Assembly (NCBI GenBank): GCA_002099625.1
Contig: GCA_002099625.1_4857.1
Strand: one strand, 5' to 3'
DNA length: 64,000 nt
Origin: Escherichia coli
Lineage (GTDB): Bacteria; Pseudomonadota; Gammaproteobacteria; Enterobacterales; Enterobacteriaceae
Shown here: positions 2,889-52,216 of the stretch, one piece after another
How positions within the stretch are numbered: position 1 is the first letter of the stretch
Layout: every line of letters starts with the position of its first letter
Position numbers and translations under genes: made by a program
Notes under the pieces: generated by a model
What the model was told of the DNA's origin: nothing
The model's database searches: none
What the model saw: the letters and a program-made list of their open reading frames with translations, nothing else

Positions 2889-2923
2889 CTGCTTTATTCG
2901 CCACCCTTGGGATAAGCGTCATC

Positions 2924-3352
2924 CTAGTTGATGTGGAGTAGAGTGTCCTTCAACGCCTTCTGCTTTTCGTACGACTGACGACACAAGGAAGTCAGCGTCG
3001 AATACGCCGTGCCGGTACGCACCGGTAATTCGCCACCCGCTTCGGTGGGTTCTGTACGAACAAAAGACCCTTCTTCAAACGGCGGCGCTGCGTGTGGGAA
3101 GTTCTTTTTCATGTATCGCTTATACCAGCCGGCCACAACACGGATAACTTTTGGCATCTGAGATCGTCGGTCACGTACTTTCTTCCCGTGCATCTGATTC
3201 ATCTCGGAAGACATGCATAGCGAGGTGTACTGACTGAATCCGTCACTGACCCACTTACCGTCCTGGACCAGTAATTTCTTACCAACTGCTACAGCGATTC
3301 TCGGAGAGAAAATGACCGCACCATCTTTACGTTTCTTAGGCTTAAGCATCAT
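2924..3352 (-). CDS. hypothetical protein
   Basis: 142-aa ORF. Confidence 0.5.
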   Translation of the reverse strand: MMLKPKKRKDGAVIFSPRIAVAVGKKLLVQDGKWVSDGFSQYTSLCMSSEMNQMHGKKVRDRRSQMPKVIRVVAGWYKRYMKKNFPHAAPPFEEGSFVRTEPTEAGGELPVRTGTAYSTLTSLCRQSYEKQKALKDTLLHIN

Positions 3353-4145
3353 TATCGTCCTTGTATAGGGAGTCGTAAGGGCTGTTAGTGTTCATGTTAA
3401 ATTCTTGTTCTACTTCAGGATGTTGTGAAAGGGAATCCAGAAAGATCGGTTGATATCCACCCTCTGTACGTTTCTTTATCATTTCAAGGAACGACTTTCC
3501 ATCAGGAACATCAGGTGTTGATACTAACACCGTGTCAGAGACTGTCGGTAAACGCGTGCAGCCTTCAGTGTTCAGCTGTAGTACCGCGTCTGGTGCGATG
3601 TGTCTGATGTTAGGAAACTTCAACGCGATCTCTTCCATCTTCGCTTTCAATGCATCACCGTTTAGCAGCGGTACAGTCGGCGTCATATAAGCGAACTCAA
3701 CATCTCGATCGGCCACATAATCGCGTAAGTGTTTTCGGGCTGCTACTGTAGCAGAAACTTGCTCTTTATTAGCGTTTATGCCGATGCCATTAAAACGTTT
3801 TAGTTTGTCTAAGAAAACGTTAATGTTTTCCTTCGGCATAGGGCGTGGGAACTTACGCAGAAAATAAAGTTGTTCGCGGCCAGGCACCCAGCTGAGCACC
3901 CAGCACGCTTTTAGTGTACGGAAGATATCACGATAGGGTTTCTTCTCTTGAAAGAAATCCCCTTTTAACTGGCAACGGTCTTCAACCATTGCCTGGAGTT
4001 GGGTGGCTACGTTGGCCATTGCCGACCAGGTGATAAGACGACTACGGTGTTTACCCACGTAGAGACGTCCACCTGTAATACGACGAGACTGTGGATGTAC
4101 TATTTTGACAAACTGTAATCTTTTCTGCTTGCGTGGTTTTAACAT
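3342..4145 (-). CDS. hypothetical protein
   Basis: 267-aa ORF; SD AAGGAG upstream. Confidence 0.55.
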   Translation of the reverse strand: MLKPRKQKRLQFVKIVHPQSRRITGGRLYVGKHRSRLITWSAMANVATQLQAMVEDRCQLKGDFFQEKKPYRDIFRTLKACWVLSWVPGREQLYFLRKFPRPMPKENINVFLDKLKRFNGIGINANKEQVSATVAARKHLRDYVADRDVEFAYMTPTVPLLNGDALKAKMEEIALKFPNIRHIAPDAVLQLNTEGCTRLPTVSDTVLVSTPDVPDGKSFLEMIKKRTEGGYQPIFLDSLSQHPEVEQEFNMNTNSPYDSLYKDDNDA

Positions 4146-4190
4146 TTGAATACTCCTTAAGGTCGTATCTAATTTGAAACTGTTGTTTTT

Positions 4191-4562
4191 TTAAGGATTA
4201 ACGAACAGTCTGCCAACCTCGTAAGATGGCGGTGCCTCGGTACTTTTGCGTTCGGGGCTAATGGGGAAATCGAACACAGGTGTTTCCATAATGTCCGGCG
4301 GCATAACCCCGTCGTTCATTTCCAGAACTCGTCTGCGTACCTTGTCCCTGAACTCGGTATCCTCGCCTTGCCACAATACGGTCAGGATTTCCTCCCGTGT
4401 AAAATCCTTACGAAGCATGTATTCTAGCGCTGCATAAATGAACACTTTTTCTTCATGTAACTGTGCTTCGTATTCTTTCCTGGCAGACAACGCTTGTTTA
4501 TAAAGTTCGCGCTCCTCATGCCCAAAGAACAGACGCCGCCACCACACCATTAATTTACTCAT
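4191..4562 (-). CDS. hypothetical protein
   Basis: 123-aa ORF. Confidence 0.5.
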   Translation of the reverse strand: MSKLMVWWRRLFFGHEERELYKQALSARKEYEAQLHEEKVFIYAALEYMLRKDFTREEILTVLWQGEDTEFRDKVRRRVLEMNDGVMPPDIMETPVFDFPISPERKSTEAPPSYEVGRLFVNP

Positions 4563-11245: not shown

Positions 11246-13194
11246 TATGCATCGTCTCCGTAGGTTAACACTGCATCATCACCGATGCATAAAACAGTTT
11301 CTTCATCCAGACTTGCCACAGCTTCTTTTTCATTAAACGCCGTGAATGTAAAGGTAGCCGTCCATGCCGGCGAATCGTCACTCATCGGTGCAATCAACGG
11401 CTCGTTTGTTGGTGTAATAACCCCTGTCGAGATGTCTTCACGTGACAAGTTTAAACCGCACAACTGGTTTACAACTGTCGCTAAATCAGCATAGGTGTCG
11501 CCGGGAGCTACAGTAACTAGTATCGGTCCTTGCGGGTCGATAATTTTATTAGCGACTAGACGGTCGTAATAGACGGTAACCTTCTTGCCGTTAGGTTTAC
11601 GTGCTTTTGCAATGTACGCTTGCGTGGTACGGGCACTTTCAACACCTAAGTCGATAGGCCCCACTCCGCTTATTACAATCTCGTCAGGCGATAATGACAA
11701 TCCGTTATCGTGATTAATTAACGCCACAACGAGGCCCTTGGAGTCTAATCTAAGGTCAGGTGTAAAACGATTAGGGGGACTGTATTTTGCATTCAGTGCA
11801 GGTTTATCAACTAACCAAAAGCCGCTTGGTACGCAGGCCAAAATCACCCAGGCGGTATTTGTTGTCGACGGCCAATTAGGTAAAGTGTCGTAAGTTGGGT
11901 CATCGCACGAATCGCGATAACCGTGTTCACCCAGGAGAACATCGATATTATTAATTAGTTCAATTGCCCTAGTATCGTTCCCTAATTGTCTTTCAAATAA
12001 GGCAACACCGGCAGTTCCTTCAACCCAAACGCCGTCGACCGCAGTCGGATAACCCAATTCAACCTTATAAGGTGTGTAACCGCTGCATTCGGACGTTACT
12101 GCTCGAAACTTTTCCATGTAGCTGTGACACTGCGAAGCCAGCTCCGGTTTGAACTTAGCGATAAACAATCCACCCCAGCTTGACTGGTCTAAAGCGGCAG
12201 CGTCGTCATCGACATCGGCTCTAACGCCTTGACGCAATCGACCCTCTTCTTCTATCCAAAACTTGTCTAAAATTAGATTGCCTAACTCTATCGCCTTCGC
12301 GGCGTAGCTATCAAATCCAACCCTTCCCAATATCTCGAATAAAAACCACAAATCAACACAATGTTCCAAGGCCGAGAACGGTGCTACATAATTTTCATCG
12401 AACGTTTGCGTACCATCGGGGTTTGTAATAAAGCGGCCTTTACCCCCGAGATATAAGCCGTATCTCCTATCGTTTACATCGCTAACACGGAATCCTTCAA
12501 CCCAACTGAGCGAAAGAGTGAGCTTACTCCTAACTTGACCAACTAAGGTGCCGTTTGGATATTTCTCTAGGTAAAAAGCAAGGGCGTATAATACCCATGC
12601 CACATTGCCCATCCGATAATAGTTACGTGGAGACTTGGCAGACAAACGATTTACATAAAACTTAATACCACCGTCTGTGTCCACTAAAGCACAAAGCCCT
12701 TTAACATATTTCTCAACGGCTCCGTGATCTATAGCCATTAGTGCTAAAGCTGCCACCGCCTGATCGTACGTGTAACATCGATCTTTCATTACCTTGATAA
12801 CATCAGGTTCGGCGTCGCTGGGCATTAAGTAACTGCGTATACATAGAGGAAATTCCAGGGTTGTAATCCACTCTCCAGTTGATATATTGATTAGTCTAAA
12901 CTGTTTAGCACCGGCCCACGTACGTTTAAAAGAAAACGCCCCTGAGGCATCAAGAGGGGCTTCACCTAGCAAATACTCCCCGGTGGTGTAAGCATACATT
13001 ACCACTTTGTGGTTTGTGGGGTTGGTAACGTTGCTTTTTCCCGTCACGACCCCGATATAATCGTAGTCTACATTCTGATCTACGGACAGACTTACACTCG
13101 GGTCGTAGACCTCAGGAAGATCCAAGGTTAGCATTGTCTCTGTAGTATATTCGACCAACTCAGCAAAGTTGCGGATTATAGGTTTCGTCGTCAC
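11245..13194 (-). CDS. glycosidase-like (alpha/alpha)6 toroid protein candidate
   Basis: Start reassigned to GTG at 13194 (SD GGAGG 5 nt upstream); the ORF track start at 13290 would read through the terminator at 13223..13250. Contains YDQAVAALAL-like motifs. Confidence 0.55.
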   Translation of the reverse strand: MTTKPIIRNFAELVEYTTETMLTLDLPEVYDPSVSLSVDQNVDYDYIGVVTGKSNVTNPTNHKVVMYAYTTGEYLLGEAPLDASGAFSFKRTWAGAKQFRLINISTGEWITTLEFPLCIRSYLMPSDAEPDVIKVMKDRCYTYDQAVAALALMAIDHGAVEKYVKGLCALVDTDGGIKFYVNRLSAKSPRNYYRMGNVAWVLYALAFYLEKYPNGTLVGQVRSKLTLSLSWVEGFRVSDVNDRRYGLYLGGKGRFITNPDGTQTFDENYVAPFSALEHCVDLWFLFEILGRVGFDSYAAKAIELGNLILDKFWIEEEGRLRQGVRADVDDDAAALDQSSWGGLFIAKFKPELASQCHSYMEKFRAVTSECSGYTPYKVELGYPTAVDGVWVEGTAGVALFERQLGNDTRAIELINNIDVLLGEHGYRDSCDDPTYDTLPNWPSTTNTAWVILACVPSGFWLVDKPALNAKYSPPNRFTPDLRLDSKGLVVALINHDNGLSLSPDEIVISGVGPIDLGVESARTTQAYIAKARKPNGKKVTVYYDRLVANKIIDPQGPILVTVAPGDTYADLATVVNQLCGLNLSREDISTGVITPTNEPLIAPMSDDSPAWTATFTFTAFNEKEAVASLDEETVLCIGDDAVLTYGDDA

Positions 13195-13207
13195 AATTTC
13201 CTCCAGA

Positions 13208-28057: not shown

Positions 28058-28534
28058 TTAAAGCTCCTTTACCATATCCTGGTATTCAGTTCGGAATCCG
28101 AAACGTTCATAAAACGCAATAGCACGGTCGTTATTACCGAGCACGTTAAGCTGCATCCATGCGCAGCCTTTTGATTTGCCATAGTTCTCTACGGCTTCGA
28201 TCAGTTCATGGCCAACGCCTTGTGAACGAACCGATTCATCTACAAAAAAGTTATATACCCAGAGGAAACGTTGTCCCTTTTTGGTGTAGCCAAAGGTGAT
28301 GAAGCCAACAGCCACACCACGGTCATCAACGGCGCAAGCGCACAGCGTACCTTCACCCCAAACCTCCTCCAGTTTTGAGATTTGATTAAACCCTTCACGA
28401 CCGTTTAAGTCGGCGAGTTTTATTTTCTGATCGTCGTATAACTTGTTGTGTAGTCCTAACAAATCCGCGTAGTATTTCTTTCCATACGGGGAGTTGGGCT
28501 TGGTGACAAAAACGATTTTCATCACACCCTCCAA
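28058..28534 (-). CDS. GNAT-family N-acetyltransferase
   Basis: Motif A RSQGVGHELIEAV and motif B AIAFYERFGF; 158 aa. Confidence 0.65.
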   Translation of the reverse strand: MEGVMKIVFVTKPNSPYGKKYYADLLGLHNKLYDDQKIKLADLNGREGFNQISKLEEVWGEGTLCACAVDDRGVAVGFITFGYTKKGQRFLWVYNFFVDESVRSQGVGHELIEAVENYGKSKGCAWMQLNVLGNNDRAIAFYERFGFRTEYQDMVKEL

Positions 28535-29016
28535 TACATCTGGTAAGCACCTACCTTAAAGCCAGCTTTGTCGTAGAGCGACTTCGCGGCAGCGTTACCG
28601 GCGTTCACGGACAGGTGAACAACTGTACACCCTTTTTCCGTTGCGGATTTCTTTACCGCATCCATCAACGCGGTGCCGTAACCTTTACCACGTGCGCTGC
28701 TGCTAACGACCAGTGAGGATACCGACATCATCGTCACACCCTCTTCAGTCATCGTGCGGTATTGCGCAAAGCCATACAAGACACCGTCGTCCACGACCGC
28801 CAGTAAACGACCCCGGAAGCGCTCGGCTAACGATTTAGCCGGCGTAAAACGGACATTAATACCCGTCTCTTTTCGATAGCTTTCTATTTCGCTTTTGTCC
28901 AGCTCGTTATAAAGCGCGAGGATATCTGTGGAATATTTCCTGCCGTTAGCCGTGTCTGGCCCCACTATGGTAATAATCTTCATCAGTTCACCTCGGCCAG
29001 CGATTGCTTCGTCCAC
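28522..29016 (-). CDS. GNAT-family N-acetyltransferase
   Basis: Motif A ARGKGYGTALMDAV and motif B KSLYDKAGF; 164 aa; tandem with 28058..28534. Confidence 0.65.
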   Translation of the reverse strand: MDEAIAGRGELMKIITIVGPDTANGRKYSTDILALYNELDKSEIESYRKETGINVRFTPAKSLAERFRGRLLAVVDDGVLYGFAQYRTMTEEGVTMMSVSSLVVSSSARGKGYGTALMDAVKKSATEKGCTVVHLSVNAGNAAAKSLYDKAGFKVGAYQMYWRV

Positions 29017-36560: not shown

Positions 36561-38744
36561 TCACTTTGGTAATTGGTCTAGCCGGAAGCCATCCATGTCA
36601 CGGTCGGCCACGCGCTCGGCAAGCGTCCACTCCTCAAATGACGTCCGCACACGGATAACATCAATAGGCGGCTGTACCATATCGATCACAACATCCTGCT
36701 CGACCTTCACGCGGATACCAGGGTAGACATTCATCCGCAACTTAATACGTTGCGGGATTGCCATTTCCTTTATCACGGGAGCGACAGGGATGGGCTTATC
36801 CGTCGTCATGAATGAACTACGGCTCACACGCTGCACGTCTGTCAGAGGGTAAATGATATTTGTTGTATCGGCAGCCTCTGCGAGAATATCATCCAGAATC
36901 GGGATGACTGGGTCGGTGACATCGTAGGTGTCAGAACCCATACGTGCGGCAAAATGGACAGTGTACGACGAGAGTTTCGTCATTAACCGCACCATCGCGC
37001 GTTGTATTTCAGCTTGTGAGACAGACGCACGTGTTTCCAGATTAGTGGCCACGTTTAAAGCGTCGGTGGCGATGTCCTGCCAGGTTTCCGCGGAGACTAA
37101 CTCGTAATCAAAACCAAACGTTTTGAAGAACTCGTCGTAATCGCGGTAAGGTAGGTCAAGATCGCACTTATAGTCACGGTAATGGTAGGTAAACAGCATT
37201 GTGCCGGCAGCACGGTCGGCTAGCTTGTGTCGATTATACGAGTAACGGTAACGACGACGCTTCTGCACCATGATTTCGCTGATTTCATCGTACAGCTCAT
37301 CTGCAGACATCAAATTGCCGATAACTTCATGATGCGTGTCCGTGTAATAGTTAATCAACGCATTAAAACGGCCGGGCCATGAGCTTGGCAGATGCTGCTC
37401 CATCTCATCAAAACCAACCCAGCGTTTGATTAGCACACCAAACACGTTCCACACCGGGATTTTATCCAGTGCTACACCCGAATAACCTTTGAAGCTCGCA
37501 TACAAGAACAGTGCCAGCAGCTCTTTTGAAGTGAGCTTTAGCGTGTCCCCGTTCGTTGGGTTAAGAATTTCGTGGTAAATGTTGTACTGTCCACGTGCCA
37601 CGATATGCATCCACTCGTTGAACAAGCCATGCATAAATTCCCAACGTTCGATGGCCTCTGGGTCAATCGCCGTTACCTCAACTAACTTCGTTGGCAGGTT
37701 CGGATACTGCGTCAAGCTCAAACGCCGATCGAGGTCTTCCTGATAGTCAGGTTCGTGCACTGGGTTATTGTACGCCAGATTGATTTCTTTCTGGATGATG
37801 TCAGTTGTGCTAACAATGTCCAGGTCACGACCCGAGTCACGTTCAGTATAGTTAAGCGATGACTGGTAGCCGATCGGGAGAGGTGTCAGGTCATCATCAC
37901 TGCCCGTCGTCGGGTCGTGAATCTGCTGGGCGACCTTATATCCAACAGCAGGCATACCCCAACCCGTCAGCAGGGTGTCAATCATCCAGGTAAAGATTTC
38001 TTCCTTACCAGAGTTACGTTCCCAGTAACGGATGTTGCGATACAGTGTGAATTTCTGCTTGAGGGTCAGGTACGGCATGAACTCGTGCAGTTCTTGGTGC
38101 GAAGCCAAGAACTCGGTCACGTAGTAGGAGTGCGTTTCGGTCGTAAACTGTAACCGTTTGCGGATGTACATGATAAGCCCCGGCCACACCGGGTACTGCT
38201 GCATGTAAAAGGCCAGTACGAAACAGTCGTTGTGAACTTTCCAGCCATCGGCCATGAACCGCACATGTGCCGCACGAATAAAGTTCTCAATATGTGTAAT
38301 TAACGACGTCTCCTGCGGTTCAACTAAAGCAGGATCGTAATACAAAATTGAGCAGTCATCGACACGTATCGCGTATGCAATATCAATCGGATTGAAAGTG
38401 CCTCGAATATATACTGCGTAGTCCGGATACTCGGCGATTAAGTCGTCGATATACTCCGGGTTAGAACGATATACGTTTGAGGTCTTTTTATGACGGGAGA
38501 GGTTCTGCGTCGTTAACTCTATCTGCTCTTGCGTGTCGAGTGACGTAATGTATATCGGCTTGTCGATTGCATGTCGTTTACCTGCTAAGTGTAGGTAATA
38601 CCGCCACGTCTCACGGTTCTCGGAAACGAAACCGCCGTTTTTGGTTATTGCCAGGTTCATCTGTTGTGCGATGCTCTCTGATTTGACAATCAGGGATTTC
38701 GCTAACTGGATAGCCTGGTCACGAAAAATGTTAAATCTCTGCAT
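36561..38744 (-). CDS. large hypothetical protein, possible virion protein
   Basis: Start at ATG 38744 (MQRFNIF); head-to-head with plus gene starting at 38756. Confidence 0.55.
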   Translation of the reverse strand: MQRFNIFRDQAIQLAKSLIVKSESIAQQMNLAITKNGGFVSENRETWRYYLHLAGKRHAIDKPIYITSLDTQEQIELTTQNLSRHKKTSNVYRSNPEYIDDLIAEYPDYAVYIRGTFNPIDIAYAIRVDDCSILYYDPALVEPQETSLITHIENFIRAAHVRFMADGWKVHNDCFVLAFYMQQYPVWPGLIMYIRKRLQFTTETHSYYVTEFLASHQELHEFMPYLTLKQKFTLYRNIRYWERNSGKEEIFTWMIDTLLTGWGMPAVGYKVAQQIHDPTTGSDDDLTPLPIGYQSSLNYTERDSGRDLDIVSTTDIIQKEINLAYNNPVHEPDYQEDLDRRLSLTQYPNLPTKLVEVTAIDPEAIERWEFMHGLFNEWMHIVARGQYNIYHEILNPTNGDTLKLTSKELLALFLYASFKGYSGVALDKIPVWNVFGVLIKRWVGFDEMEQHLPSSWPGRFNALINYYTDTHHEVIGNLMSADELYDEISEIMVQKRRRYRYSYNRHKLADRAAGTMLFTYHYRDYKCDLDLPYRDYDEFFKTFGFDYELVSAETWQDIATDALNVATNLETRASVSQAEIQRAMVRLMTKLSSYTVHFAARMGSDTYDVTDPVIPILDDILAEAADTTNIIYPLTDVQRVSRSSFMTTDKPIPVAPVIKEMAIPQRIKLRMNVYPGIRVKVEQDVVIDMVQPPIDVIRVRTSFEEWTLAERVADRDMDGFRLDQLPK

Positions 38745-38755
38745 CGGAGACCCCA

Positions 38756-41500
38756 ATGGAAGATATTAGTAAATTAACGGGCGACCCCGCGGTAGCTGCC
38801 ATACTGCGTAAGTCCACGAGCCCGTCGGCTCAGCAGCAACGCGGTAAGCGTGAAGATGGCGGCGTTACACCAACCCGTACAGAACTCACGGGCATTGCGA
38901 GTAGCCGCATTCGCACCGTTAAAAATGCCGAACGTATCTTTGATGCGCTCCCTGAGTTAGAGGTCATTGTTACCATCGCGACCTCCTCACTCCTGTCCAC
39001 AAAAGATTTGATTAACACCACGCTGATTTACGACAACGTGGCTGATATCCCGATCGACCTGCGTCAACAGTTGTTGGAACCTGTGCGTGAATTCCATGAC
39101 CACACGCGCCAGTTACCCAACAAACTGTATCAGTGGATTTACGATGCACTGAAATCCAAAGGCGCGAGCCCGGTGTTGCTGATTTCAGATACCGGATTCG
39201 ATGAACTCTTCGGCTTAAAGCCGTCTGTTGCAACCGAATCGTTGCGCCGTAGCCAATCTGACTTCTTTGAACGTCAGTTGGGTATCCTGGGCAAGATTGG
39301 CGGTGAAAACAAACCGAAGGTTGGTGTAGAAAGTATTCTGGGCCGTGCACGTGGCGCTGACAAGCCCACCAAGCCACAAACCATTAAACTTAACTTTGCA
39401 GCAGCCCCTAACAGTCCGTTTAAAGCAGACGGTATGTTAGCTTCCCTGGATATCGTTATCACCGACAACCCGCGTATTACCCTGCTACCAGAGGCTTATC
39501 GCCGTGTGGCACAGGAGAATGCTCGCACCGGCCTGTTCGGTCAGTTAGAGCAGTACGCATATGAACAACCTTCTACGCCGACAGGTGCGTCAGAGTATAA
39601 CGCTGACCAGTTCACAGACAGTGAACAAGAGAAGGCAAAACTCGGTTTAATCAACATCGGCGACCTCAACGAAGCGTACCAGAAAACGCCTGAGCAAAAG
39701 CTTTACGGCGAAGTACCGAAGATGAGTTTCTCCGATGCCAACAAAATCGAATACACGGAACGATTACTGCCAGCAGAGTCCACACTCCCGCTCGTTATCG
39801 GCGACGATGTTCGTAACCCCATAGGTTATCTGGCCATCGTTGACGAAATGGGTAACTTCATTAACTCGCGCTCCACACTTTACGGTGATGCGAACTTCAT
39901 GAACTACCTGAACAACGACGGTATGGTGGATTCAACAATCAACCGTGCGAATCTGGGGATGGGCAACACAACCCGAATCACACCAGACATTGCTAACCGC
40001 TTAACAGCGCGTTATGGTGAAATTGCTGAAGACCAGCTAACCAAAGCTCTGGGTGAGGCGTTGGGTGGTGCTGAGATTAGCATGACAGTAACCGAAACGT
40101 TCAGCCGTATCATGCTGGCGCGCCATCTGGCAAAACGTCATACGCAGGTTATCTATATTCCTGCGGAAAACCTTTGCTATTTTGCCACGGACTTTGATGA
40201 AGATGGTATCGGTGTATCTATTACCGAACGCTCGTTCGTTATCTCTACTGTCCGTATGGCGCTGTTGTTCGCTACCATGAACTCTGCGGTGTTGAACTCT
40301 GCACGTCACATGCAGTACGACATTGAGTTGGCACCAGATGACATGAACGGTCAGAAAACAATTGACCAGCTGAAAACAGACATCATGAACTCCTATAACC
40401 GTCGTCAACCGATGTGGGGGGACATGAACGACACCTGGGCAATGACGACAAACGCAGGTATTGCGTTTAACGTTATTGGTAACGACTACTACGGTAGTAC
40501 CAAAGTGTCTGTGTCGGACACTACGCCGGATTATAAATACCCGGATAAGGATTTCGACGAAGGTCTGTTACGACGTACTTGTCACATCGCAGGTGTTGAC
40601 CCTGACCTGGTAATGACCCCCGAGAACATCGAGTTTGCTTCACAGATCTTCTCTAAATCGTTACTGGTCACCCAGCAGGTTGTTAAGAAGCAAGAGATTC
40701 TCTCTAAGCCACTGACACGTTACGTAGTTAATGGGATGTTGGCCTCTCCGTCGTTGCAATCAGCGATGATTAAAATCATTGCAGAGTACATCAATGCTAA
40801 CGGCAATGGGATGACTACTGACCAGATTACGAAAAAGGTCTCTGAGTATCTGGCTGCGTTTATCAACGGTATGAAAGTAACCTTACCACCGCCAGACACC
40901 TCTGCAGCAGCTTCGCAGATGGAGCTGTTCGATAAACGTACGGAGTTCTTTGAGAAGCTGGCTGATCTGGTTGTAACGGATGACATTGCTGCGCAACTCC
41001 AGCAAGAAGGTATCTCGATGGACCCGAACGATCTGAAGACGATGATCAAATCCTTCTATACGCGCAACTGGCTGCGTAAACAAGGTATTGAAACCGACTT
41101 CTTCGATCTGGTTTACGACGATGATTCTCGTCAGGACAACATCACCATGATGACTGATGAAGCGATGGCTGCTTCGAAAACGCTGATTCAATTGGCGAAA
41201 CGTTTCACCGGGCGACTGGAAACGTTAGCGAAGAATGCCGACCTTGATCCTAACGATGCTTCCGGCGGATTCGGTGGTGGTTTTGATGCGGGCGGTGACA
41301 CCGGCGGTGGTGATGGGGATCTCGGCGGTGGGGGTGACGATGATTTAGACCTCGATCTCGATACGGATAACGGCACCGGTGGTGATAGTACAGAGGAAAC
41401 TACTGAGTCGACCGAAACCACGGAAACAACTACCGAGGGAACGGAAGGCACAGAAGGCGGTGAAGGAACTACCGACGACAACCCAGACAACGTCCTCTAA
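38756..41500 (+). CDS. large virion-associated protein, portal-like candidate
   Basis: Continuous 914-aa plus-strand ORF while minus frames are fragmented; C-terminal Gly/Asp/Thr/Glu low-complexity tail; portal assignment is speculative. Confidence 0.55.
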   Translation: MEDISKLTGDPAVAAILRKSTSPSAQQQRGKREDGGVTPTRTELTGIASSRIRTVKNAERIFDALPELEVIVTIATSSLLSTKDLINTTLIYDNVADIPIDLRQQLLEPVREFHDHTRQLPNKLYQWIYDALKSKGASPVLLISDTGFDELFGLKPSVATESLRRSQSDFFERQLGILGKIGGENKPKVGVESILGRARGADKPTKPQTIKLNFAAAPNSPFKADGMLASLDIVITDNPRITLLPEAYRRVAQENARTGLFGQLEQYAYEQPSTPTGASEYNADQFTDSEQEKAKLGLINIGDLNEAYQKTPEQKLYGEVPKMSFSDANKIEYTERLLPAESTLPLVIGDDVRNPIGYLAIVDEMGNFINSRSTLYGDANFMNYLNNDGMVDSTINRANLGMGNTTRITPDIANRLTARYGEIAEDQLTKALGEALGGAEISMTVTETFSRIMLARHLAKRHTQVIYIPAENLCYFATDFDEDGIGVSITERSFVISTVRMALLFATMNSAVLNSARHMQYDIELAPDDMNGQKTIDQLKTDIMNSYNRRQPMWGDMNDTWAMTTNAGIAFNVIGNDYYGSTKVSVSDTTPDYKYPDKDFDEGLLRRTCHIAGVDPDLVMTPENIEFASQIFSKSLLVTQQVVKKQEILSKPLTRYVVNGMLASPSLQSAMIKIIAEYINANGNGMTTDQITKKVSEYLAAFINGMKVTLPPPDTSAAASQMELFDKRTEFFEKLADLVVTDDIAAQLQQEGISMDPNDLKTMIKSFYTRNWLRKQGIETDFFDLVYDDDSRQDNITMMTDEAMAASKTLIQLAKRFTGRLETLAKNADLDPNDASGGFGGGFDAGGDTGGGDGDLGGGGDDDLDLDLDTDNGTGGDSTEETTESTETTETTTEGTEGTEGGEGTTDDNPDNVL

Positions 41501-41565
41501 ACAAAAAAGAAAAAGAAATAAGGTTTACCTCTCCCTTCGGGGAGAGGTACCTTTTCTTTTTTAAT
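41500..41565. terminator. bidirectional intrinsic terminator
   Basis: Stem tacctctccc/gggagaggta with ttcg loop, flanked by A-run upstream and T-run downstream; sits between convergent genes. Confidence 0.75.
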
Positions 41566-42229: not shown

Positions 42230-43906
42230 TTAGTACAACACTGGTGCAGTTTTCTCACCATTGCTCAGAAGCAGATAGGTGTGCTGCGGCAGCTGCATCA
42301 ATACAATTGCATGTGGCACGTTTTCCTGCACAGCTTCGTAGATAGATACAACAGGGTCTGCGGTATTGCCCAAAGACGCTACCGTAACCACATCATGCTT
42401 ATCAACGGAATGGTACATGCCTGGAATTACAATAGTGAACTGGCTCTGAATCAGATTAACTACTTTGCCGGAATCGCTCAGCTTAATAGTCAGTTTGCGC
42501 AGAGAGTTCGCCACCATCAAGAACAGGTCACGGAACCAGTCTTCATATTCACTGACGCCGTTGTCGCCAGCGGTTGCAGTGAACAGATCTTTTACGAAGA
42601 AATCAATATCGCTGATTTTGCGTTCGAAATCGATGGCTTTGAACTTCGGCACATCTTTACCGCGCTTAGTGCCCAGCGACAGCGCATTGTGTACCAAGAA
42701 CGTGATGTTCGCCAGGTACGCATTAGCAAAGCGAGAAATCTCACTGATAACCACTTCTGCTTCGCTGCTGTTCGCAATCGCATAATCGTGCAGTTCTTTC
42801 GTGTTCTTACGCAGTTCATCGATCGTACGTTTCACCTTAGCCATGATAGTTTCAACATCTTCTACCAGCGCCAGGCTGTCGAGATCGGATTTCAACGCGT
42901 CGTGCTTAGCAACAAATTGCTTCATGCGTTCGCACATATCAGTGTTAACACCGACCAGATACGCGCGATAACTATCCCGTGCACGCACAATCAGGTCAGC
43001 CCCGTCGTAGAAAACAACCTCTTCATTACCGTTAAAGATATCTTGCAACGGTGTAGCCCAATCACGCGTTTCCGCGTAAACAGATTGCTTAATGCGACTG
43101 TTAGCTTCCTTCGCTGGAATCGACATTTTAAGCTCGGGGGTTTTCAGCTCGTGAAGTGCGTAGTCTTCCATCAAATCAATCTCCTGCAGAATGTTGTTAA
43201 TTGGGCCATTGGTAGTGTCCTTCTCGGTTTCTTCTGTTGCGCCGAGTGGGGAAAGCACTGGGTTATTAACTGTAGCATTAGACACCGGCATTGGTTGTAC
43301 AGGCACCTGTGCTGGTTCAGGCTGGGGCTGTTGTGCTGTGGCTGGGACTACTTGCGCCGGTTGTGGGTTCAGGATAGGATCACTAACCAGGTTAAGACCT
43401 GCACCGCCAGCAATCACGGTTAGTGCCGCATCCGTGTTACCAATCTTAACGCCACCGGATGGCGCAGAAGACATGGTCAAGCCATCAGTAACACGCACAC
43501 CGCCAGAACTGTTACCGCCCAGTAACCCGCCTGCGTTGCTACCACCACCTAAACCACCACTGCCACCCAAACCGCCGGACTGCTGAGAACGAATTTCGGC
43601 AAGAATCTTACCGACTTGTTCCCAAGCATTAACCAGTTTGGTGTGACGATCGTCGTTATACGCGTCGCCTGCGTTATGCACCTGCTGATAGGCAGCTGCT
43701 TTATACGCATCGACTGCATATGCGATAACCTGTGCTTCACTACCCCCTTTGGATGCTGCCCATGCCGCAACATACGTCGCAATCTTTAACGCCTGATCTG
43801 GCGGAATGCTACGACTACGCATCACGTTATTCAACTGCGACAGTACCGCGTCCTGATCGAGGTGTTTAACGATGACGTTTTTGATTTGTTCAACAGTAAT
43901 GCTCAT
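42230..43906 (-). CDS. hypothetical protein with Gly-rich and Pro/Gln-rich low-complexity regions
   Basis: 558-aa ORF; the antisense 380-aa plus ORF is judged spurious. Confidence 0.55.
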   Translation of the reverse strand: MSITVEQIKNVIVKHLDQDAVLSQLNNVMRSRSIPPDQALKIATYVAAWAASKGGSEAQVIAYAVDAYKAAAYQQVHNAGDAYNDDRHTKLVNAWEQVGKILAEIRSQQSGGLGGSGGLGGGSNAGGLLGGNSSGGVRVTDGLTMSSAPSGGVKIGNTDAALTVIAGGAGLNLVSDPILNPQPAQVVPATAQQPQPEPAQVPVQPMPVSNATVNNPVLSPLGATEETEKDTTNGPINNILQEIDLMEDYALHELKTPELKMSIPAKEANSRIKQSVYAETRDWATPLQDIFNGNEEVVFYDGADLIVRARDSYRAYLVGVNTDMCERMKQFVAKHDALKSDLDSLALVEDVETIMAKVKRTIDELRKNTKELHDYAIANSSEAEVVISEISRFANAYLANITFLVHNALSLGTKRGKDVPKFKAIDFERKISDIDFFVKDLFTATAGDNGVSEYEDWFRDLFLMVANSLRKLTIKLSDSGKVVNLIQSQFTIVIPGMYHSVDKHDVVTVASLGNTADPVVSIYEAVQENVPHAIVLMQLPQHTYLLLSNGEKTAPVLY

Positions 43907-46837: not shown

Positions 46838-47536
46838 TTAGGGTATTAGGCGTTGGGCTATTTCGCGGAGTTGGTCGCGGGTTAAATCAGCCAACTTCTG
46901 GTCGCCGAAGCCCAACTTCAGACCCAGCTCGTATCCAGCTTGCGGATACGTGTTCGTGTTTGCTACTGAGAGGAGTGCATCGGCTATCTTTACCATCGTT
47001 AACTCGAGAGACGCATACGGGGCGGGGATCGGCTGATTCACGATTTGGTAATTATAACGCACTGCGGCGTTATCGTAGTCAAACTCCATCCTTCTGCCGA
47101 GAACGTTAAACGACTCCGCAGAATAACTACCAAATGGGTGATTGGCTTTTTCCCACAAATCTTTCCGTTCAGTAAACCCAGTCGCGAAGTTCTGACGTAT
47201 GGTGTCGAATATTTGCGTTGCCTGGCTAGGGTGTATATTTTTCAGCTCATTGTAGTCGTAGTCGGCGATGGAATATAGAGTGAACACAACACCGTTTATA
47301 TTTAACTGCGGATAATCCATCCGCAGACTATCATCACCTTGTAAATGAAGTTCCCACATCCTCACCCACTGCAATATCGCACTTACCGCATCGTGACTGA
47401 GATAAAAATTAGTAGGTTCTTCAGAATTTTCACGGAAGGGAACAGAGCATTCCGATGCAAAAAAGCCGGCTGCCATAAATCCTCTGCCGTCGAACATAGG
47501 CGCAACTAATCTTGATTTTTCTAAATTGATTACCAT
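46838..47536 (-). CDS. hypothetical protein
   Basis: 232-aa ORF; SD TAAGGAG; class B promoter 30 nt upstream. Confidence 0.55.
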   Translation of the reverse strand: MVINLEKSRLVAPMFDGRGFMAAGFFASECSVPFRENSEEPTNFYLSHDAVSAILQWVRMWELHLQGDDSLRMDYPQLNINGVVFTLYSIADYDYNELKNIHPSQATQIFDTIRQNFATGFTERKDLWEKANHPFGSYSAESFNVLGRRMEFDYDNAAVRYNYQIVNQPIPAPYASLELTMVKIADALLSVANTNTYPQAGYELGLKLGFGDQKLADLTRDQLREIAQRLIP

Positions 47537-47671: not shown

Positions 47672-49969
47672 TTAGCCGCCAGCGCCTTCACCGCCAGTAC
47701 CTGGCTGGGTACCGCCGCCAACATCACCAGCATTACCACCGTCAGTACCGCCGGTACCGTTGGAAGTAGTAGTGACGTTGAACGCCAGTTTCTCTTCCAC
47801 GAACTTGGTGATACCTTTAATCCAGATCAGACCAGTGATCGGGCAGTGGCAGATGTGCGCGTTACGAGGCTGTACTGCCAGCTCTTTGCTGGTAGCGCCG
47901 TTACGCTGGATGTTGATGTTGGTTACCATGATCGGAGACCAGAAGTGGTTACCCCAGTTCAGAACACAGTAAGAACCATCATCAGCGGTTGGAACTTTCA
48001 GAACCCACTGCAGGCGGCGAGTCCAGCTGCCGTCAGCTTCGTTCTTCACACGCCAGCGGTCATCGTTGGTGGTGATAACTTCGTACTCGTAGCGATCGCC
48101 CAGCAGACGCTGGTCACCCTGAACCAGCAGCAGCATTGCAGCAGTCGGTTCGTCAGTTGCGATAACAACTTTCGGCAGTGCGTTCGGGTCCGCAGTCAGC
48201 AGGCGCAGAGCCGGCATGAAGCGAGAGTCCTGGATAGCACGAGTTACCTGGTCACCGATACGCTGTACCAGACCCTGACGGGCGTTGATGAGCGCATCTT
48301 TGGTATCCAGAGACTGGATCACTTTGTCCACTTCGTAGTCGCTTTCGCTGTACCACGGAGCAACCCAGTGACGGCCCAGGCCGCGGATAGCAGGTTTGTC
48401 CCACGGAGTGATCATGGACGCAGCTGCGTTCTTAACCGCTTCGGTGTAAGACAGAGTCTGAGTGATAGCCAGCATTTCGTTACGGATGTTAACCGCAGAA
48501 ACGAGGTCGTCCAGACGTTCGGTGTCGTCGTATTCAACGCCAACCGGAGATTTGGTCATGATCGGAGAACCGTACTGCAGTTTGTAGTTCTCTTGTTCCC
48601 AAATCGGGTCGAGCAGAAGGCCCTGGGTTCTCCGGTTCTCGTTGGTACGAGTACCGTCGAAGCGCCAGCCCAGCAGCTCCAGTTTCAGGTTGTCGATGAT
48701 CACTTTACCGGTGCCGCTTTCGATATCAACAGCAGTACCAGTTGCGTCGTACAGACCTTCGATTTCCAGAGACGGTGCAGTCACGTCAACACGACCAGAG
48801 AACTGACCGTTGGTGAACAGAGACATGCTGATGTTCATGGAATAACGAATGGTGTAATCGTTCTGTGCCAGAGCGGCCAGTGCCGGGATTTCAGCACCTT
48901 TCCAGTCCAGAGACTTGGCGTTCAGGGAGAACACGGTGCGACGGAACTGCAGGACCAGCTCACGGCCATCACCTTCAGGAGGACGCTGGAAAGTAGCGAA
49001 CTGCATGTCGCGTACGTTCAGTTTGATCAGCGCACCATCTTTCGCTTCTTCGGTCGGCTTACGCACAGACAGCAGCAGGCTACCCAGCGCCGCACCCGGT
49101 GCGATTTCGTCGGTTTCATCGTAACCTTCCTGCACGATACCCGGATGGGCAGACAGCTGGAACAGGTTCAGACGACGTTCAGAGAAGCTCAGGTAGTTGG
49201 TCGGATACGCCGGCACACGACCCAGCTGAACGTTTTCGTTTTCGATGATGTCTTCGGATACGAAGAACTTCGCGTTCTCGCCGGTTTCCATCACGTAAGG
49301 AACGATACGGATAGCATCGTCCTGCAGGACTTTGTGGTTAGACAGCGCGTTATGCAGCGGCTGACGGTTGTCTTCAACCACGTCTTTGGTCAGCAGGGCG
49401 TTCAGGATACCACGAGTTACAGTAGTAACTTTGGTACGAACGGTGATGCCGACGTCGTTGGTGTCCACAGTGATGGTCGGGAACAGGGTTTCTGCAAACT
49501 TGGATTGAGTTTCCAGAGCACGCACGTTCAGCGTCCAGGTCAGACCCAGGTTTTTGTCCAGGTCTTTGTTGGTGTAGTATTCGGTTGCGACCAGCGGAGT
49601 TTTACCGTAGTCAGCAGCCAGAGATGCTGCACCGGAAATAGCGATCGGCATGTAGCTGGCATATTCCGGCTTCGCGCTCTCAGCAGCAACACGGGTCATG
49701 AAGTCATCTTCGTGACCGGCAGCAGCCAGAATCATCGCAGAAGCAACCTGAGCAGCGTGGCTCATGGTTTTGCCAGGGTTTACAGCTTCGTAGTGCTGCT
49801 GAGCAGTGTCACGCAGGTTGGTGAAGCCGGCAGCATTTTTACGTACAGATTCGCCAACGGCTACGGTTTGCCATACGTCATTAGCGGAAGAGCCTGCCTT
49901 GGCAGCAGCGACCAGAGCATTGCCCTGCTGAACCAGCTGGTCCAGACTAGCGATACGGGTATCTTTCAT
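47672..49969 (-). CDS. abundant large structural protein, major capsid or sheath candidate
   Basis: 765-aa ORF with strongly biased codon usage, strong downstream terminator, Gly-rich C-terminal tail; the antisense 715-aa plus ORF has R/V/F/Q-rich junk-like composition. Confidence 0.55.
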   Translation of the reverse strand: MKDTRIASLDQLVQQGNALVAAAKAGSSANDVWQTVAVGESVRKNAAGFTNLRDTAQQHYEAVNPGKTMSHAAQVASAMILAAAGHEDDFMTRVAAESAKPEYASYMPIAISGAASLAADYGKTPLVATEYYTNKDLDKNLGLTWTLNVRALETQSKFAETLFPTITVDTNDVGITVRTKVTTVTRGILNALLTKDVVEDNRQPLHNALSNHKVLQDDAIRIVPYVMETGENAKFFVSEDIIENENVQLGRVPAYPTNYLSFSERRLNLFQLSAHPGIVQEGYDETDEIAPGAALGSLLLSVRKPTEEAKDGALIKLNVRDMQFATFQRPPEGDGRELVLQFRRTVFSLNAKSLDWKGAEIPALAALAQNDYTIRYSMNISMSLFTNGQFSGRVDVTAPSLEIEGLYDATGTAVDIESGTGKVIIDNLKLELLGWRFDGTRTNENRRTQGLLLDPIWEQENYKLQYGSPIMTKSPVGVEYDDTERLDDLVSAVNIRNEMLAITQTLSYTEAVKNAAASMITPWDKPAIRGLGRHWVAPWYSESDYEVDKVIQSLDTKDALINARQGLVQRIGDQVTRAIQDSRFMPALRLLTADPNALPKVVIATDEPTAAMLLLVQGDQRLLGDRYEYEVITTNDDRWRVKNEADGSWTRRLQWVLKVPTADDGSYCVLNWGNHFWSPIMVTNINIQRNGATSKELAVQPRNAHICHCPITGLIWIKGITKFVEEKLAFNVTTTSNGTGGTDGGNAGDVGGGTQPGTGGEGAGG

Positions 49970-49981
49970 TTCAAGTTTACC

Positions 49982-50506
49982 TTATTTAGATAAATGACAT
50001 GCGTACAACTGCGTCAGCACTTCGTGCGCAGCAAACTGCGTCGACGTACTGAACGTATCATCCACGACACGAGTCTTGGGACGCATATATTTAAAAAGTT
50101 CTGCGCAGAACATCTTTTTCGCAGCGTGGTCTTCACTTAAAGAAAAACCCGGTCCGGATTTAGCTTCTGCAAAAGACGCCACAACAACATCGCCACGTTG
50201 TGAGAACACCCAACGTAAACGACCGTCGAATGATTCCCCATATAAATCAGCAAGGGTTTCATTCGTACCTTTCTCAACCAGGTTTAAGACCTGGTCATAA
50301 TAAAGAGTCGGAAGTGCAGGTGGTGCCATAATCGATTTATAAATCGAAATAGGGTCACTCACTGGCAGTATGATGGAACTAAAGCCCGACGAGCAGTCAT
50401 ATAACCAGTTAAAGAAGCTTGCTTGGAGTTCCTCCAACTTTTTAACGCCAGCCCCTTTATCTATGTTAGATTGAACTTCCCACGGTGGACTAAAACGAAT
50501 TTGCAT
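49982..50506 (-). CDS. hypothetical protein
   Basis: Start at ATG 50506 (MQIRFSPPW), 15 nt from the divergent plus-strand start. Confidence 0.5.
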   Translation of the reverse strand: MQIRFSPPWEVQSNIDKGAGVKKLEELQASFFNWLYDCSSGFSSIILPVSDPISIYKSIMAPPALPTLYYDQVLNLVEKGTNETLADLYGESFDGRLRWVFSQRGDVVVASFAEAKSGPGFSLSEDHAAKKMFCAELFKYMRPKTRVVDDTFSTSTQFAAHEVLTQLYACHLSK

Positions 50507-50520
50507 TTTAAGGATGCTCC

Positions 50521-52083
50521 ATGAATAGTAAAATGATGTTGATAACCGCCTTAGCCGCACTGTATACAGAATCTATGCTGACGGACCCTAGCAAGGATCA
50601 TGATGTCATAAGAAAAGTTCTGATGCAGATCAAGCTTCCGGAATATGCGGAAGATGGCGAAGAGCGCTTTGCACTCATCGAGATCAAGGACATTATCACA
50701 TCTATCATAGACGGCGGCATGGAATACGACCACGCGAGCGTTATGAAGCGCTTGAAGCTGGCCACCACTCAAGTACGTCCTCTATACGATACGATTACCA
50801 AATTCCTCGAAGACGATTTGCCCGAGGAAGAAGACAAACGTACCGAGCATCTTAATCGACAACTGTCTCAATATTATTTCCAATTACGTCAATGTTTACA
50901 GAGCGTCGAACTCAAAACAAAAATGGGTCGCGCGTTCGGAGCATTGAATGGAACTGAGACACGTGTTGATCTGAACACCGCAGTGCTCGAACTCAAAGAG
51001 GCGCTATCTACGTTCGGTGAACGCTCTCATAATAAGATTCCATCACTGGTTGGTGAGCTGGTTACGGATAATCGTGCTCCGTTTGTTAAAGTGTTCGACT
51101 CGATTAACAAGAAAGCAGCAGGTAATGGTTTGCAGACGGGCTGGAAAGCCATTAACCAAATGCTCGGTTGTAACAAAGGGATTACCGAAGAACTGTGGCT
51201 AATGCCGGCGTTACCTTTTAACTGTAAGTCTTTGTTCAGTCTCTTACTGAGCTTGTCGATTCCTATCTTCAACACGCCTGAGAAAGTAATGGCGGATGTG
51301 AAGGGCACACTGCAACCAATTATTCTTGACTTGAGTTTAGAAAACGAACTCGACGTTAACTTAGCTTACGGCTATCAAGCACTGTACGGTCATTTTGAAG
51401 GACAAGTTCCACAGATGACCATTGCCCAAGATGCGACCGCTGAAGAGAAGTTAGCACACACAACAGCAATGTCTGATTACCTCTGTGGTAAGATTCGCGC
51501 AAACGGTTGGGACTACGTTTTCCAAAAGCACACCAACTCCGATTTTAAAGTGCACTACATCAACGACCTTATTCTCGACTTACGTCGTCGCGGTTATCAT
51601 GTTGTTGGCATTCGCGCAGACTACTTAGGCACAATCAGCAAAGCAGGACACGGCAACGGTATTGCCGGGAGTGATATCAAAGAAATTTATCGTATTGCTC
51701 GTAACATCCAAGTGGTACGCAACCGTGGGTTCTTAATTGCCCCACACCAGATTTCCCCAGAAGGTAAGCGCTTAAAAGCGTTAGACCCGGTAGGTTTCTG
51801 TAAGAACTTACCTGGTCGTGGTCTTTACGATAGTTGTTCGAGCCTTGATAACGAGGCCGATGGTGAAATGTATTTTAACAAGCGTGTGGTCAACGGCCAT
51901 AGCTTCTTAGAAGTTCAACGCGGTAAGCACCGCACCATTATCGATACTAAAGAATCTTATCACTACACAGTGATACCTTTCCAGGATGTTGGCATCCTGC
52001 CTTGGGATTGTGATAAAGAAGAAACCGTAACAGCGTCGTCTATCAACTTCTTCACCGGTGGAATGGGTGATGATTTGTTCTAA
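50521..52083 (+). CDS. hypothetical protein, plus-strand
   Basis: Continuous 520-aa plus ORF with SD AAGGA; minus frames fragmented. Confidence 0.55.
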   Translation: MNSKMMLITALAALYTESMLTDPSKDHDVIRKVLMQIKLPEYAEDGEERFALIEIKDIITSIIDGGMEYDHASVMKRLKLATTQVRPLYDTITKFLEDDLPEEEDKRTEHLNRQLSQYYFQLRQCLQSVELKTKMGRAFGALNGTETRVDLNTAVLELKEALSTFGERSHNKIPSLVGELVTDNRAPFVKVFDSINKKAAGNGLQTGWKAINQMLGCNKGITEELWLMPALPFNCKSLFSLLLSLSIPIFNTPEKVMADVKGTLQPIILDLSLENELDVNLAYGYQALYGHFEGQVPQMTIAQDATAEEKLAHTTAMSDYLCGKIRANGWDYVFQKHTNSDFKVHYINDLILDLRRRGYHVVGIRADYLGTISKAGHGNGIAGSDIKEIYRIARNIQVVRNRGFLIAPHQISPEGKRLKALDPVGFCKNLPGRGLYDSCSSLDNEADGEMYFNKRVVNGHSFLEVQRGKHRTIIDTKESYHYTVIPFQDVGILPWDCDKEETVTASSINFFTGGMGDDLF

Positions 52084-52216
52084 CGAACACTGGGGAGCTT
52101 AGGCTCCCCTACGGGCAGTTTATGCGTCCTGCCAAGATCAAAAAAAAATACGACGAACTATTTATATGCATGGAATTACCCGAGTGTTCCAGCACTCGGG
52201 TAAGAGTTATTTCATG

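Follow-up and report, generated by a model that had tools for sequence, protein, structure and literature searches.

Two head-to-head gene pairs in an SPN3US-like phage

We examined two head-to-head gene junctions in a 64,000-nucleotide (nt) stretch of DNA deposited as Escherichia coli (GenBank assembly GCA_002099625.1, contig GCA_002099625.1_4857.1; the whole stretch is called "the window" below). By nucleotide identity and synteny, the window belongs to an SPN3US-like (Seoulvirus) jumbo phage of the phiKZ type. It maps as a whole to positions 55,459–116,811 of SPN3US, in reverse orientation, in seven collinear blocks at 95.6–98.1% identity, and the regions around the two junctions are 99.3–99.9% identical to those of SPN3US, EC001 and SPLA3. 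At each junction, a plus-strand gene and a minus-strand gene nearly touch: counted from first base to first base, the paired start codons lie 12 nt apart at site 1 and 15 nt apart at site 2. The features at and around the junctions are as follows.

Site 1: minus-strand ATG (CAT at 38742–38744); spacer cggagacccca at 38745–38755 (11 nt); plus-strand ATG at 38756–38758
36561–38744, minus strand: gene for a 727-amino-acid (aa) virion protein (SPN3US "virion structural protein 9"); homologue of phiKZ gp128; phrog_3222
38756–41500, plus strand: portal gene (SPN3US gp81, 914 aa, long N-terminal propeptide); homologue of phiKZ gp129; phrog_3004
41526–41549, both strands: terminator-like bidirectional hairpin with a 10-bp stem and a TTCG loop, between the portal stop codon and a convergent minus-strand gene
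Site 2: minus-strand ATG (CAT at 50504–50506); spacer tttaaggatgctcc at 50507–50520 (14 nt); plus-strand ATG at 50521–50523
47672–49969, minus strand: major capsid protein gene (gp75), co-directional with the 174-aa gene and 12 nt downstream of it
49982–50506, minus strand: 174-aa gene, function not assigned; phrog_8266; first gene of the capsid unit
50521–52083, plus strand: gene for a divergent DnaB-like replicative helicase, 520 aa; PF20307; phrog_3213; homologue of phiKZ gp118
52176–52203, plus strand: terminator-like hairpin with a 12-bp stem, downstream of the helicase stop codon

The protein assignments come from sequence comparison and from published work on SPN3US. The 727-aa protein aligns with phiKZ gp128 from residue 4 onward (29% identity, E=6e-90). 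The window's portal protein is 98–100% identical to SPN3US gp81, which was identified as the portal by mass spectrometry and structure prediction (PMC5694885) and carries a long N-terminal propeptide (PMC5694885, PMC10052503). The 520-aa protein matches PF20307 with 416 bits (cutoff 26; E=1.2e-124) and is 27% identical to phiKZ gp118 (E=2e-45). The 174-aa protein has no detectable sequence similarity to phiKZ gp119, despite the equivalent position of its gene. A first-pass annotation of this DNA had described both plus-strand genes as large candidates for the virion module; this is right for the first, which encodes the portal, and wrong for the second, which encodes the helicase. That these are the only two plus-strand genes in the window agrees with SPN3US, where the annotation of 55,459–116,811 likewise places no genes but those for the portal and the helicase on this strand.

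Start codons and spacers

Such close spacing raises a question: are the start codons genuine? The RefSeq record of SPN3US (NC_027402) gives identical starts for all four junction genes. We compared the junctions in 19 genomes and uncultivated viral genomes from at least six genera, a set covering Seoulvirus, Erskinevirus, Machinavirus, Wellingtonvirus, Derbicusvirus and unclassified metagenomic contigs. All four ATG codons are kept in 19 of 19 genomes, with spacers of 11–15 nt at site 1 and 11–14 nt at site 2. Although the spacers vary in length, the four proteins are conserved from Met1 (MQRFNIF / MEDISKL at site 1; MQIRFSPPW / MNSKMMLI at site 2), and the window offers the portal gene no second in-frame start candidate closer than about 80 nt to the junction. 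The starts first proposed, 38744 (minus) and 38756 (plus) at site 1 and 50506 (minus) and 50521 (plus) at site 2, thus match the sequence, RefSeq and the 19 related genomes. These alignments show the annotated start codons to be correct, as securely as comparative data allow.

The spacers contain the following elements.

38745–38755, site-1 spacer cGGAGACCCCa: portal Shine-Dalgarno (SD) element GGAG at 38746–38749; minus-strand SD-like GGGGT, the complement of ACCCC at 38750–38754
50507–50520, site-2 spacer tttAAGGAtgCTCC: helicase SD element AAGGA at 50510–50514; SD element GGAG of the 174-aa gene, the complement of CTCC at 50517–50520

At site 1, the portal ATG is preceded by GGAG at a distance of 6 nt, as is the minus-strand ATG by GGGGT on the other strand; the respective duplexes with the anti-SD sequence (−6.6 and −5.9 kcal/mol, at 4–5 nt spacing) are conserved in all lineages. 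The site-1 spacer of Phobos and CR5 is a near-palindrome, tGGAGacaaCTCCgg. For all four genes and all lineages, predicted anti-SD pairing ranges from −4.2 to −6.6 kcal/mol at spacings of 3–9 nt, and it is −5.5 kcal/mol or stronger everywhere except at the helicase SD element of Phobos and CR5. This pairing is only moderate: among random 20-mers drawn from the window, the fifth percentile lies at −6.6 kcal/mol. Each 11–14-nt spacer is nothing but two opposed SD elements, each adjoining the start codon of the other gene. Because the spacers leave no room for a promoter and the SD elements are conserved, the leader of each mRNA has to reach into the opposite gene; the leaders overlap oppositely oriented coding sequence.

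Sixteen clear divergent junctions are annotated in SPN3US, with spacers of 11, 14, 25, 29, 57, 63, 66, 67, 70, 76, 98, 124, 163, 180, 206 and 280 nt; sites 1 and 2 have the shortest. It is conservation across genera, and not rarity within one genome, that sets the two junctions above chance. The two junctions are the extreme of a generally compact family trait: real and conserved, and not a singular anomaly.

TATG as a probable promoter core

SPN3US is related to phiKZ and has genes for multisubunit RNA polymerases of its own, both virion and non-virion, and transcription in phiKZ-type phages is independent of the host RNA polymerase (PMC7598289). In vitro, the non-virion RNA polymerase (nvRNAP) of phiKZ requires each base of T(−3)ATG(+1), and no known consensus extends further (PMC4666361); what specifies its promoters beyond TATG has been called unclear (PMC7598289), and a review states that such promoters are not predictable bioinformatically.

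Three independent lines of evidence speak for TATG as a signal in the SPN3US clade. The first is a bipartite motif. TTAC-N15-TATG occurs 24 times in SPN3US, compared with 1–6 times for neighbouring spacings or single-base variants. When the hit coordinates were mapped onto the annotation, all 24 copies lay on the local coding strand, about 15 of them immediately upstream of genes. The consensus, (A/T)TTTACG-N14-TATG, recalls the AT-rich element at −24 of phiKZ middle promoters, and it probably represents the middle/late promoters of the clade. The window has these copies of it:

7672, 26447 and 55685, all minus strand: (A/T)TTTACG-N14-TATG

The second is avoidance of TATG within genes. In the minus-strand genes of the window, CATA on the sense strand (i.e., antisense TATG) is the lowest of the 256 tetranucleotides relative to a Markov expectation (observed/expected 0.38), and sense TATG is the third lowest (0.64). 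Synonymous-codon shuffles, which preserve each protein and its codon usage, gave the same picture in 76 control genes: antisense TATG was found 38 times vs. 93.4±8.0 expected (z=−7), and sense TATG 154 times vs. 243.9±9.6 expected (z=−9.4). CATA ranks first to third lowest of the 256 tetranucleotides in six relatives, beside the palindromes GATC and CTAG. These two are likewise avoided (observed/expected 0.15–0.39 for GATC), and in every relative no non-palindromic tetranucleotide is more under-represented than antisense TATG.

The third concerns the four junction genes, in which antisense TATG is not depleted in the same shuffles (14 observed, 13.6 expected). Five plus-strand TATGs (38291, 38374, 38489, 50369 and 50462) lie within 1 kb upstream of the plus-strand genes; by our own calculation from TATG density elsewhere in the window, about 0.8 would be expected. 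In codon alignments of the three large junction genes, every fully conserved TATG is antisense. On one and the same set of five genomes, the four junction genes contain five fully conserved antisense TATGs and 11 co-directional controls, the very conserved capsid gene included, contain none (P ~0.01, our own estimate from the counts). That TATG is a functional signal in this clade is well supported by these patterns, as is nucleotide-level selection on the TATGs of site 2.

Start-site mapping in phiKZ

The homologous gene pairs of phiKZ are also divergent: gp128 (minus) and gp129 (plus) are separated by 35 nt, and gp118 (minus) and gp119-gp120 (plus) by 211 nt. Other phages separate the gp128-like gene from the portal gene by 24 nt (PCH45), 32 nt (Desertfox), 53 nt (Moabite), 88 nt (RP12) and, as annotated, 254 nt (PhiPA3). 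Both divergent pairs are ancient.

Transcription start sites (TSSs) of phiKZ were taken from the supplement of an ONT-cappable-seq study (bioRxiv 10.1101/2023.10.13.562163). Its late promoter P070 has a TSS at 130258 (plus), with the upstream sequence "...CATCAAATTTTATGA", listed also as "...AAATTTTATGA", and the transcription unit TU100 (130258–133099) contains PHIKZ129 only, ending at terminator T060 just after the gp129 stop codon (bioRxiv 10.1101/2023.10.13.562163). This TSS is inside the gp128 coding sequence (128154–130328, minus), 71 nt past the gp128 start, and it coincides with a TATG that we had picked from the phiKZ sequence before consulting the mapping data. In phiKZ, then, the portal promoter is embedded in the divergent gp128 gene. 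At the other pair, P063 (=P119L, TSS 117616) drives gp119-gp120 from the 211-nt intergenic region (bioRxiv 10.1101/2023.10.13.562163), and the TSSs of P064–P068 were mapped inside gp119, driving gp120 alone.

Candidate promoters within the neighbouring genes

A search for TATG cores of the phiKZ late type, upstream of each junction gene on the transcribed strand, yielded five invariant sites.

50443–50465, plus strand: candidate helicase promoter TAAC-N15-TATG, core at 50462–50465, inside codons 14–21 of the 174-aa gene
50607–50610, minus strand: candidate late promoter core for the 174-aa gene and capsid unit, context acttttcTTATGAc, inside helicase codons 29–31
51028–51031, minus strand: second conserved TATG, ggaatcttatTATGAg, helicase codons 175–178, 522 nt upstream of the 174-aa gene
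38489–38492, plus strand: candidate portal promoter core TATG, context ggtcttttTATGAc, at codon 85 of the 727-aa gene
39558–39561, minus strand: weak candidate core, palindromic CATATG, portal codons 268–269, 814 nt upstream of the 727-aa gene

The TATG of the helicase candidate is invariant in 19 of 19 genomes and falls within a codon run at 0.9 synonymous identity. Upstream of this core, the window reads TAAC-N15, a single mismatch to the bipartite motif of the clade; Phobos and CR5 have TTAC-N15 exactly, and in Wellington and UV11741 the spacing is TTAC-N16. None of the other four candidates has a bipartite upstream half. From this site we predict a helicase TSS at G50465, which corresponds to about 69,609 in SPN3US, and a 56-nt 5′ untranslated region (UTR). 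On the opposite strand, the TATG at 50607–50610 is invariant in 18 of 18 genomes and is built by the invariant rare codons GTC-ATA-AGA (usage 0.16 for Val, 0.11 for Ile and 0.05 for Arg); the predicted TSS of the capsid unit is at 50607, with a 101-nt 5′ UTR. The more distant ggaatcttatTATGAg is a 16-nt block, also invariant in 18 of 18 genomes, in the top synonymous-conservation window of the helicase gene.

The candidates at site 1 are weaker than those at site 2. The TATG at 38489–38492 is invariant in 19 of 19 genomes, in a context resembling the TTTTATGA of phiKZ P070; it would place the portal TSS at G38492, with a predicted 5′ UTR of 264 nt. The palindrome at 39558–39561 is likewise invariant in 19 of 19 genomes, with synonymous identity of 0.9 at three codons; that it acts as a promoter is speculative.

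Some candidates were set aside. TATGs nearer to the site-1 starts, at −58 of the 727-aa gene in the window and at −30 of the portal gene in phiEaH2-like phages, are lineage-specific. Synonymous conservation over the first 12 codons was considered as evidence of promoters: the portal gene ranks 1 of 984 and the helicase gene 13 of 515, but control genes are equally high.

Other conserved stretches were observed in the site-2 genes. Two sense-strand TATGs inside the 174-aa gene (50296–50299 and 50239–50242, minus) are invariant in 19 of 19 genomes, and the 3′ part of this gene has runs of invariant codons (codons 137–145 and 170–178); these may be internal promoters or belong to the initiation region of the capsid gene. 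At helicase codons 88–91 (~50780–50800), the minus-strand atcgtatcgtatagagg is synonymously invariant in 18 of 18 genomes and contains no TATG.

Proposed overlapping, face-to-face transcription units

We consider it probable that promoters embedded in the neighbouring gene produce face-to-face, overlapping transcription units at both conserved junctions. In this model, the phage's own multisubunit RNA polymerases would transcribe the junction genes from middle/late promoters that, as in phiKZ, would have a 4-nt TATG core with G as the start and sometimes TTTACG 14 nt upstream. Because the core is only 4 nt long, such promoters fit inside coding sequence. We infer that the conserved TATGs are TSSs. 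Each plus-strand gene would be a monocistronic unit starting from an antisense TATG in its neighbour (helicase ~50465, portal ~38492) and terminated by a hairpin directly beyond the stop codon; the hairpins found after both plus-strand genes parallel the monocistronic portal unit of phiKZ. The capsid unit would be driven at least partly by TATGs antisense in the helicase gene, at ~50607 and perhaps 51028, and the 727-aa gene either from 39558 or by read-through from upstream. The paired promoters would face each other, and the mRNAs would share complementary 5′ regions over both ribosome-binding sites (~143 nt at site 2).

Several observations weigh against this model. In the window, the helicase candidate departs from the consensus TTAC by having TAAC, a sequence that shows no genome-wide enrichment. 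The conserved TATGs of site 1 are far from their genes (264 and 814 nt) and each rest on few synonymous sites, that at 38489 on essentially one His codon; no conserved TATG is found on either strand within 165 nt of either site-1 start. The 5′ synonymous conservation of co-directional controls is elevated as well (0.67 vs. 0.40; 0.63 vs. 0.39), and hence such conservation is not diagnostic. Our literature search yielded no transcriptome of an SPN3US-like phage, so every TSS given here is a prediction. Finally, the phiKZ mapping reports no TSS or transcription unit for gp128 or gp118, leaving the promoters of the minus-strand genes without direct precedent.

This last point bears on the alternative that survives best, namely that the minus-strand genes have no promoter of their own inside the plus-strand genes and are read through from upstream minus-strand transcripts, antisense through the portal and helicase genes. 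In phiKZ, a minus-strand TSS upstream of gp130 (P073, 134428) could supply such read-through; in the window, the 727-aa gene has no conserved TATG close to its start, and the T-tract of the minus-strand hairpin that follows the helicase region is poor. Opposing this are the strong bidirectional hairpin at 41526–41549, which has T-runs on both strands and stands between the upstream minus-strand gene and the 3′ end of the portal gene; the invariant, rare-codon TCTTATGAC 101 nt upstream of the 174-aa gene; and the strong late promoter, P119L, that the homologous capsid unit of phiKZ has for itself. We regard read-through as unlikely, with perhaps a fifth of the weight. The first-pass annotation had reasoned that both promoters and both 5′ UTRs must lie inside the opposite gene. 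This stands for the 5′ UTRs and for the promoters of the plus-strand genes, given the SD-filled spacers of 11–14 nt and the phiKZ TSS at 130258 inside gp128; for the promoters of the minus-strand genes it does not, as read-through from upstream is possible and phiKZ gp128 and gp118 have no reported TSS.

The same annotation had suggested tightly co-regulated divergent units. This is unsupported and does not suit site 2, with its pairing of a replication gene and a capsid operon, which probably belong to different temporal classes. Promoters that face each other, as those proposed here do, would be expected to interfere and not to be co-regulated. Only for site 1, with its two late head genes, is co-expression plausible. 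The geometry of site 2 would allow transcriptional interference or antisense control between the replication gene and the late capsid unit, a speculative reading of the predicted start sites. A stronger form of this idea, in which the face-to-face promoters of the helicase gene and capsid unit (~50465 plus and ~50607 minus, 143-nt overlap) constitute an excludon-like temporal switch, seems to us doubtful, somewhat more so than read-through. Firing of the late capsid promoter would then shut off helicase expression via polymerase collision, a complementary 5′ leader, or both; if true, the transition from replication to assembly would be hard-wired into an 11–14-nt junction in the SPN3US clade.

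Other promoter classes

Motifs of other kinds were considered as sources of the junction transcripts. The 13-nt AT-rich motif AGATAKATRTTAY has 24 matches at two or fewer mismatches, vs. 6.5 expected, and recurs in intergenic DNA, always coding-strand and in many cases directly behind a terminator hairpin. Its nine exact or one-mismatch matches are listed here.

2813, 7689, 18188, 24764, 26465, 46774, 47579, 54648 and 63153, all minus strand: AGATAKATRTTAY, intergenic

This motif matches how early promoters of the virion RNA polymerase are described for phiKZ-type phages. At one mismatch or fewer, no copy is on the plus strand and none adjoins either junction. A possible early-promoter match upstream of the helicase gene, ATCTATGTTA, was rejected, as it has 4 mismatches in 13 positions to the early consensus by our own count.

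Reasoning from host sigma-70 promoters is inapplicable because the phage encodes its own RNA polymerases. Sigma-70-like sites are depleted (12 vs. 19.7 in shuffles). The only such site at a junction (50532→50505, minus) was dismissed; its −10 element overlies the start codon of the 174-aa gene.

The Ser-Lys codons AGT AAA recur at portal codons 5–6 and helicase codons 3–4, giving A(A/T)TTTAC on the minus strand at 38769–38775 and 50528–50534. One could suppose that the minus-strand genes are transcribed from these sequences as −24-type elements, with starts within the spacer and near-leaderless mRNAs. The heptamers are 24 and 21 nt upstream of the minus-strand ATGs (38775 and 50534) and identical to the upstream half of the clade's bipartite promoter, and the first codons of the portal gene have that gene's highest synonymous conservation. 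Against this, such 5′ conservation is common to control genes; GGGT and CTTA, and no TATG, stand at the required N15; Wellington, UV11741, Phobos and CR5 lack the element despite the conserved junction, and it is not conserved in Wellington-, UV11741- or Derbicus-type phages; and transcripts started in the spacer would exclude the conserved SD elements of the minus-strand genes. We think this explanation very improbable. Weaker still, and hardly credible, is the notion that the starts are mis-annotated and that initiation at downstream codons would leave ordinary promoter-bearing intergenic regions: our literature search gave no reported N-terminal peptide for any of the four proteins, but conservation from Met1 in at least six genera despite the varying spacer length, the portal gene's want of an alternative start within ~80 nt, an SD-like element at the correct spacing before each ATG, the alignment of phiKZ gp128 to residue 4 and the detection of peptides from the portal propeptide region (residues 136–165) all contradict it.

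Further features of the window

Two open reading frames (ORFs) lie antisense to minus-strand DNA. A 715-aa ORF (47846–49993, plus) covers nearly the entire major capsid gene, and the codon-aligned antisense frame is free of stops across the whole gene in the window, STsAS, Asesino and CR5. We rejected it as a third plus-strand gene; the frame is broken in Kwan (203 codons) and partly in Phobos, as expected of a codon-bias artefact. It looks like a by-product of high expression of the capsid gene, in which the codons TTA, CTA and TCA are avoided. The second ORF (380 aa, 42281–43423) is a similar case and is not conserved.

Five segments have no megablast match in SPN3US (2917–3707, 4163–4553, 11734–13199, 28525–28974 and 46847–47492); their flanks are 96–98% identical. 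The last contains most of a 232-aa minus-strand ORF (46838–47536), which has the early-promoter motif ahead of it. These segments amount to local mosaicism relative to SPN3US.

Implications

For annotation, this means that divergent starts as close together as these are real and should be left as they stand. The junctions show the degree of genome compaction that is possible when a polymerase needs only a tetranucleotide core promoter, and they yield predicted start sites that can be tested in a Salmonella jumbo phage amenable to genetics. The avoidance of TATG (strongest in antisense), the motif TTTACG-N14-TATG and the invariant rare codons could help to define nvRNAP promoter determinants beyond TATG.

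Comparison with known systems

Face-to-face promoters and excludon-type overlapping divergent transcripts occur elsewhere, e.g., pR/pL of coliphage 186 and the excludons of Listeria. As in those systems, the predicted promoters here converge, complementary 5′ regions would cover the ribosome-binding sites, and site 2 pairs different functions. Unlike them, the junctions would be transcribed by phage multisubunit polymerases inside the phage nucleus and not by the host sigma-70 RNA polymerase, and the resemblance is one of predicted geometry only.

The closest counterparts are in phiKZ. Like the gp118|gp119-gp120 pair, site 2 has a DnaB-like helicase gene divergent from a small gene that is followed by the major capsid gene. 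In phiKZ, the capsid unit is driven by P119L, a TATG-type nvRNAP promoter (PMC4666361), in a 211-nt intergenic region; the corresponding region of the SPN3US clade is 11–14 nt. With the spacer so compressed, a promoter equivalent to P119L has to lie inside the helicase gene.

Site 1 is homologous to the head-to-head gp128|gp129 pair, in which the portal gene is monocistronic from a TTTTATGA promoter inside gp128, and differs from it in spacer length (11 nt here vs. 35 nt in phiKZ). The portal TSS of phiKZ is 106 nt upstream of the ATG (about codon 24 of gp128), while the only TATG conserved clade-wide is 264 nt upstream (codon 85); because these positions differ, the predicted promoter here is analogous and not positionally homologous to P070. 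The layout is a known kind of phiKZ-type compact arrangement and is ordinary for the family.

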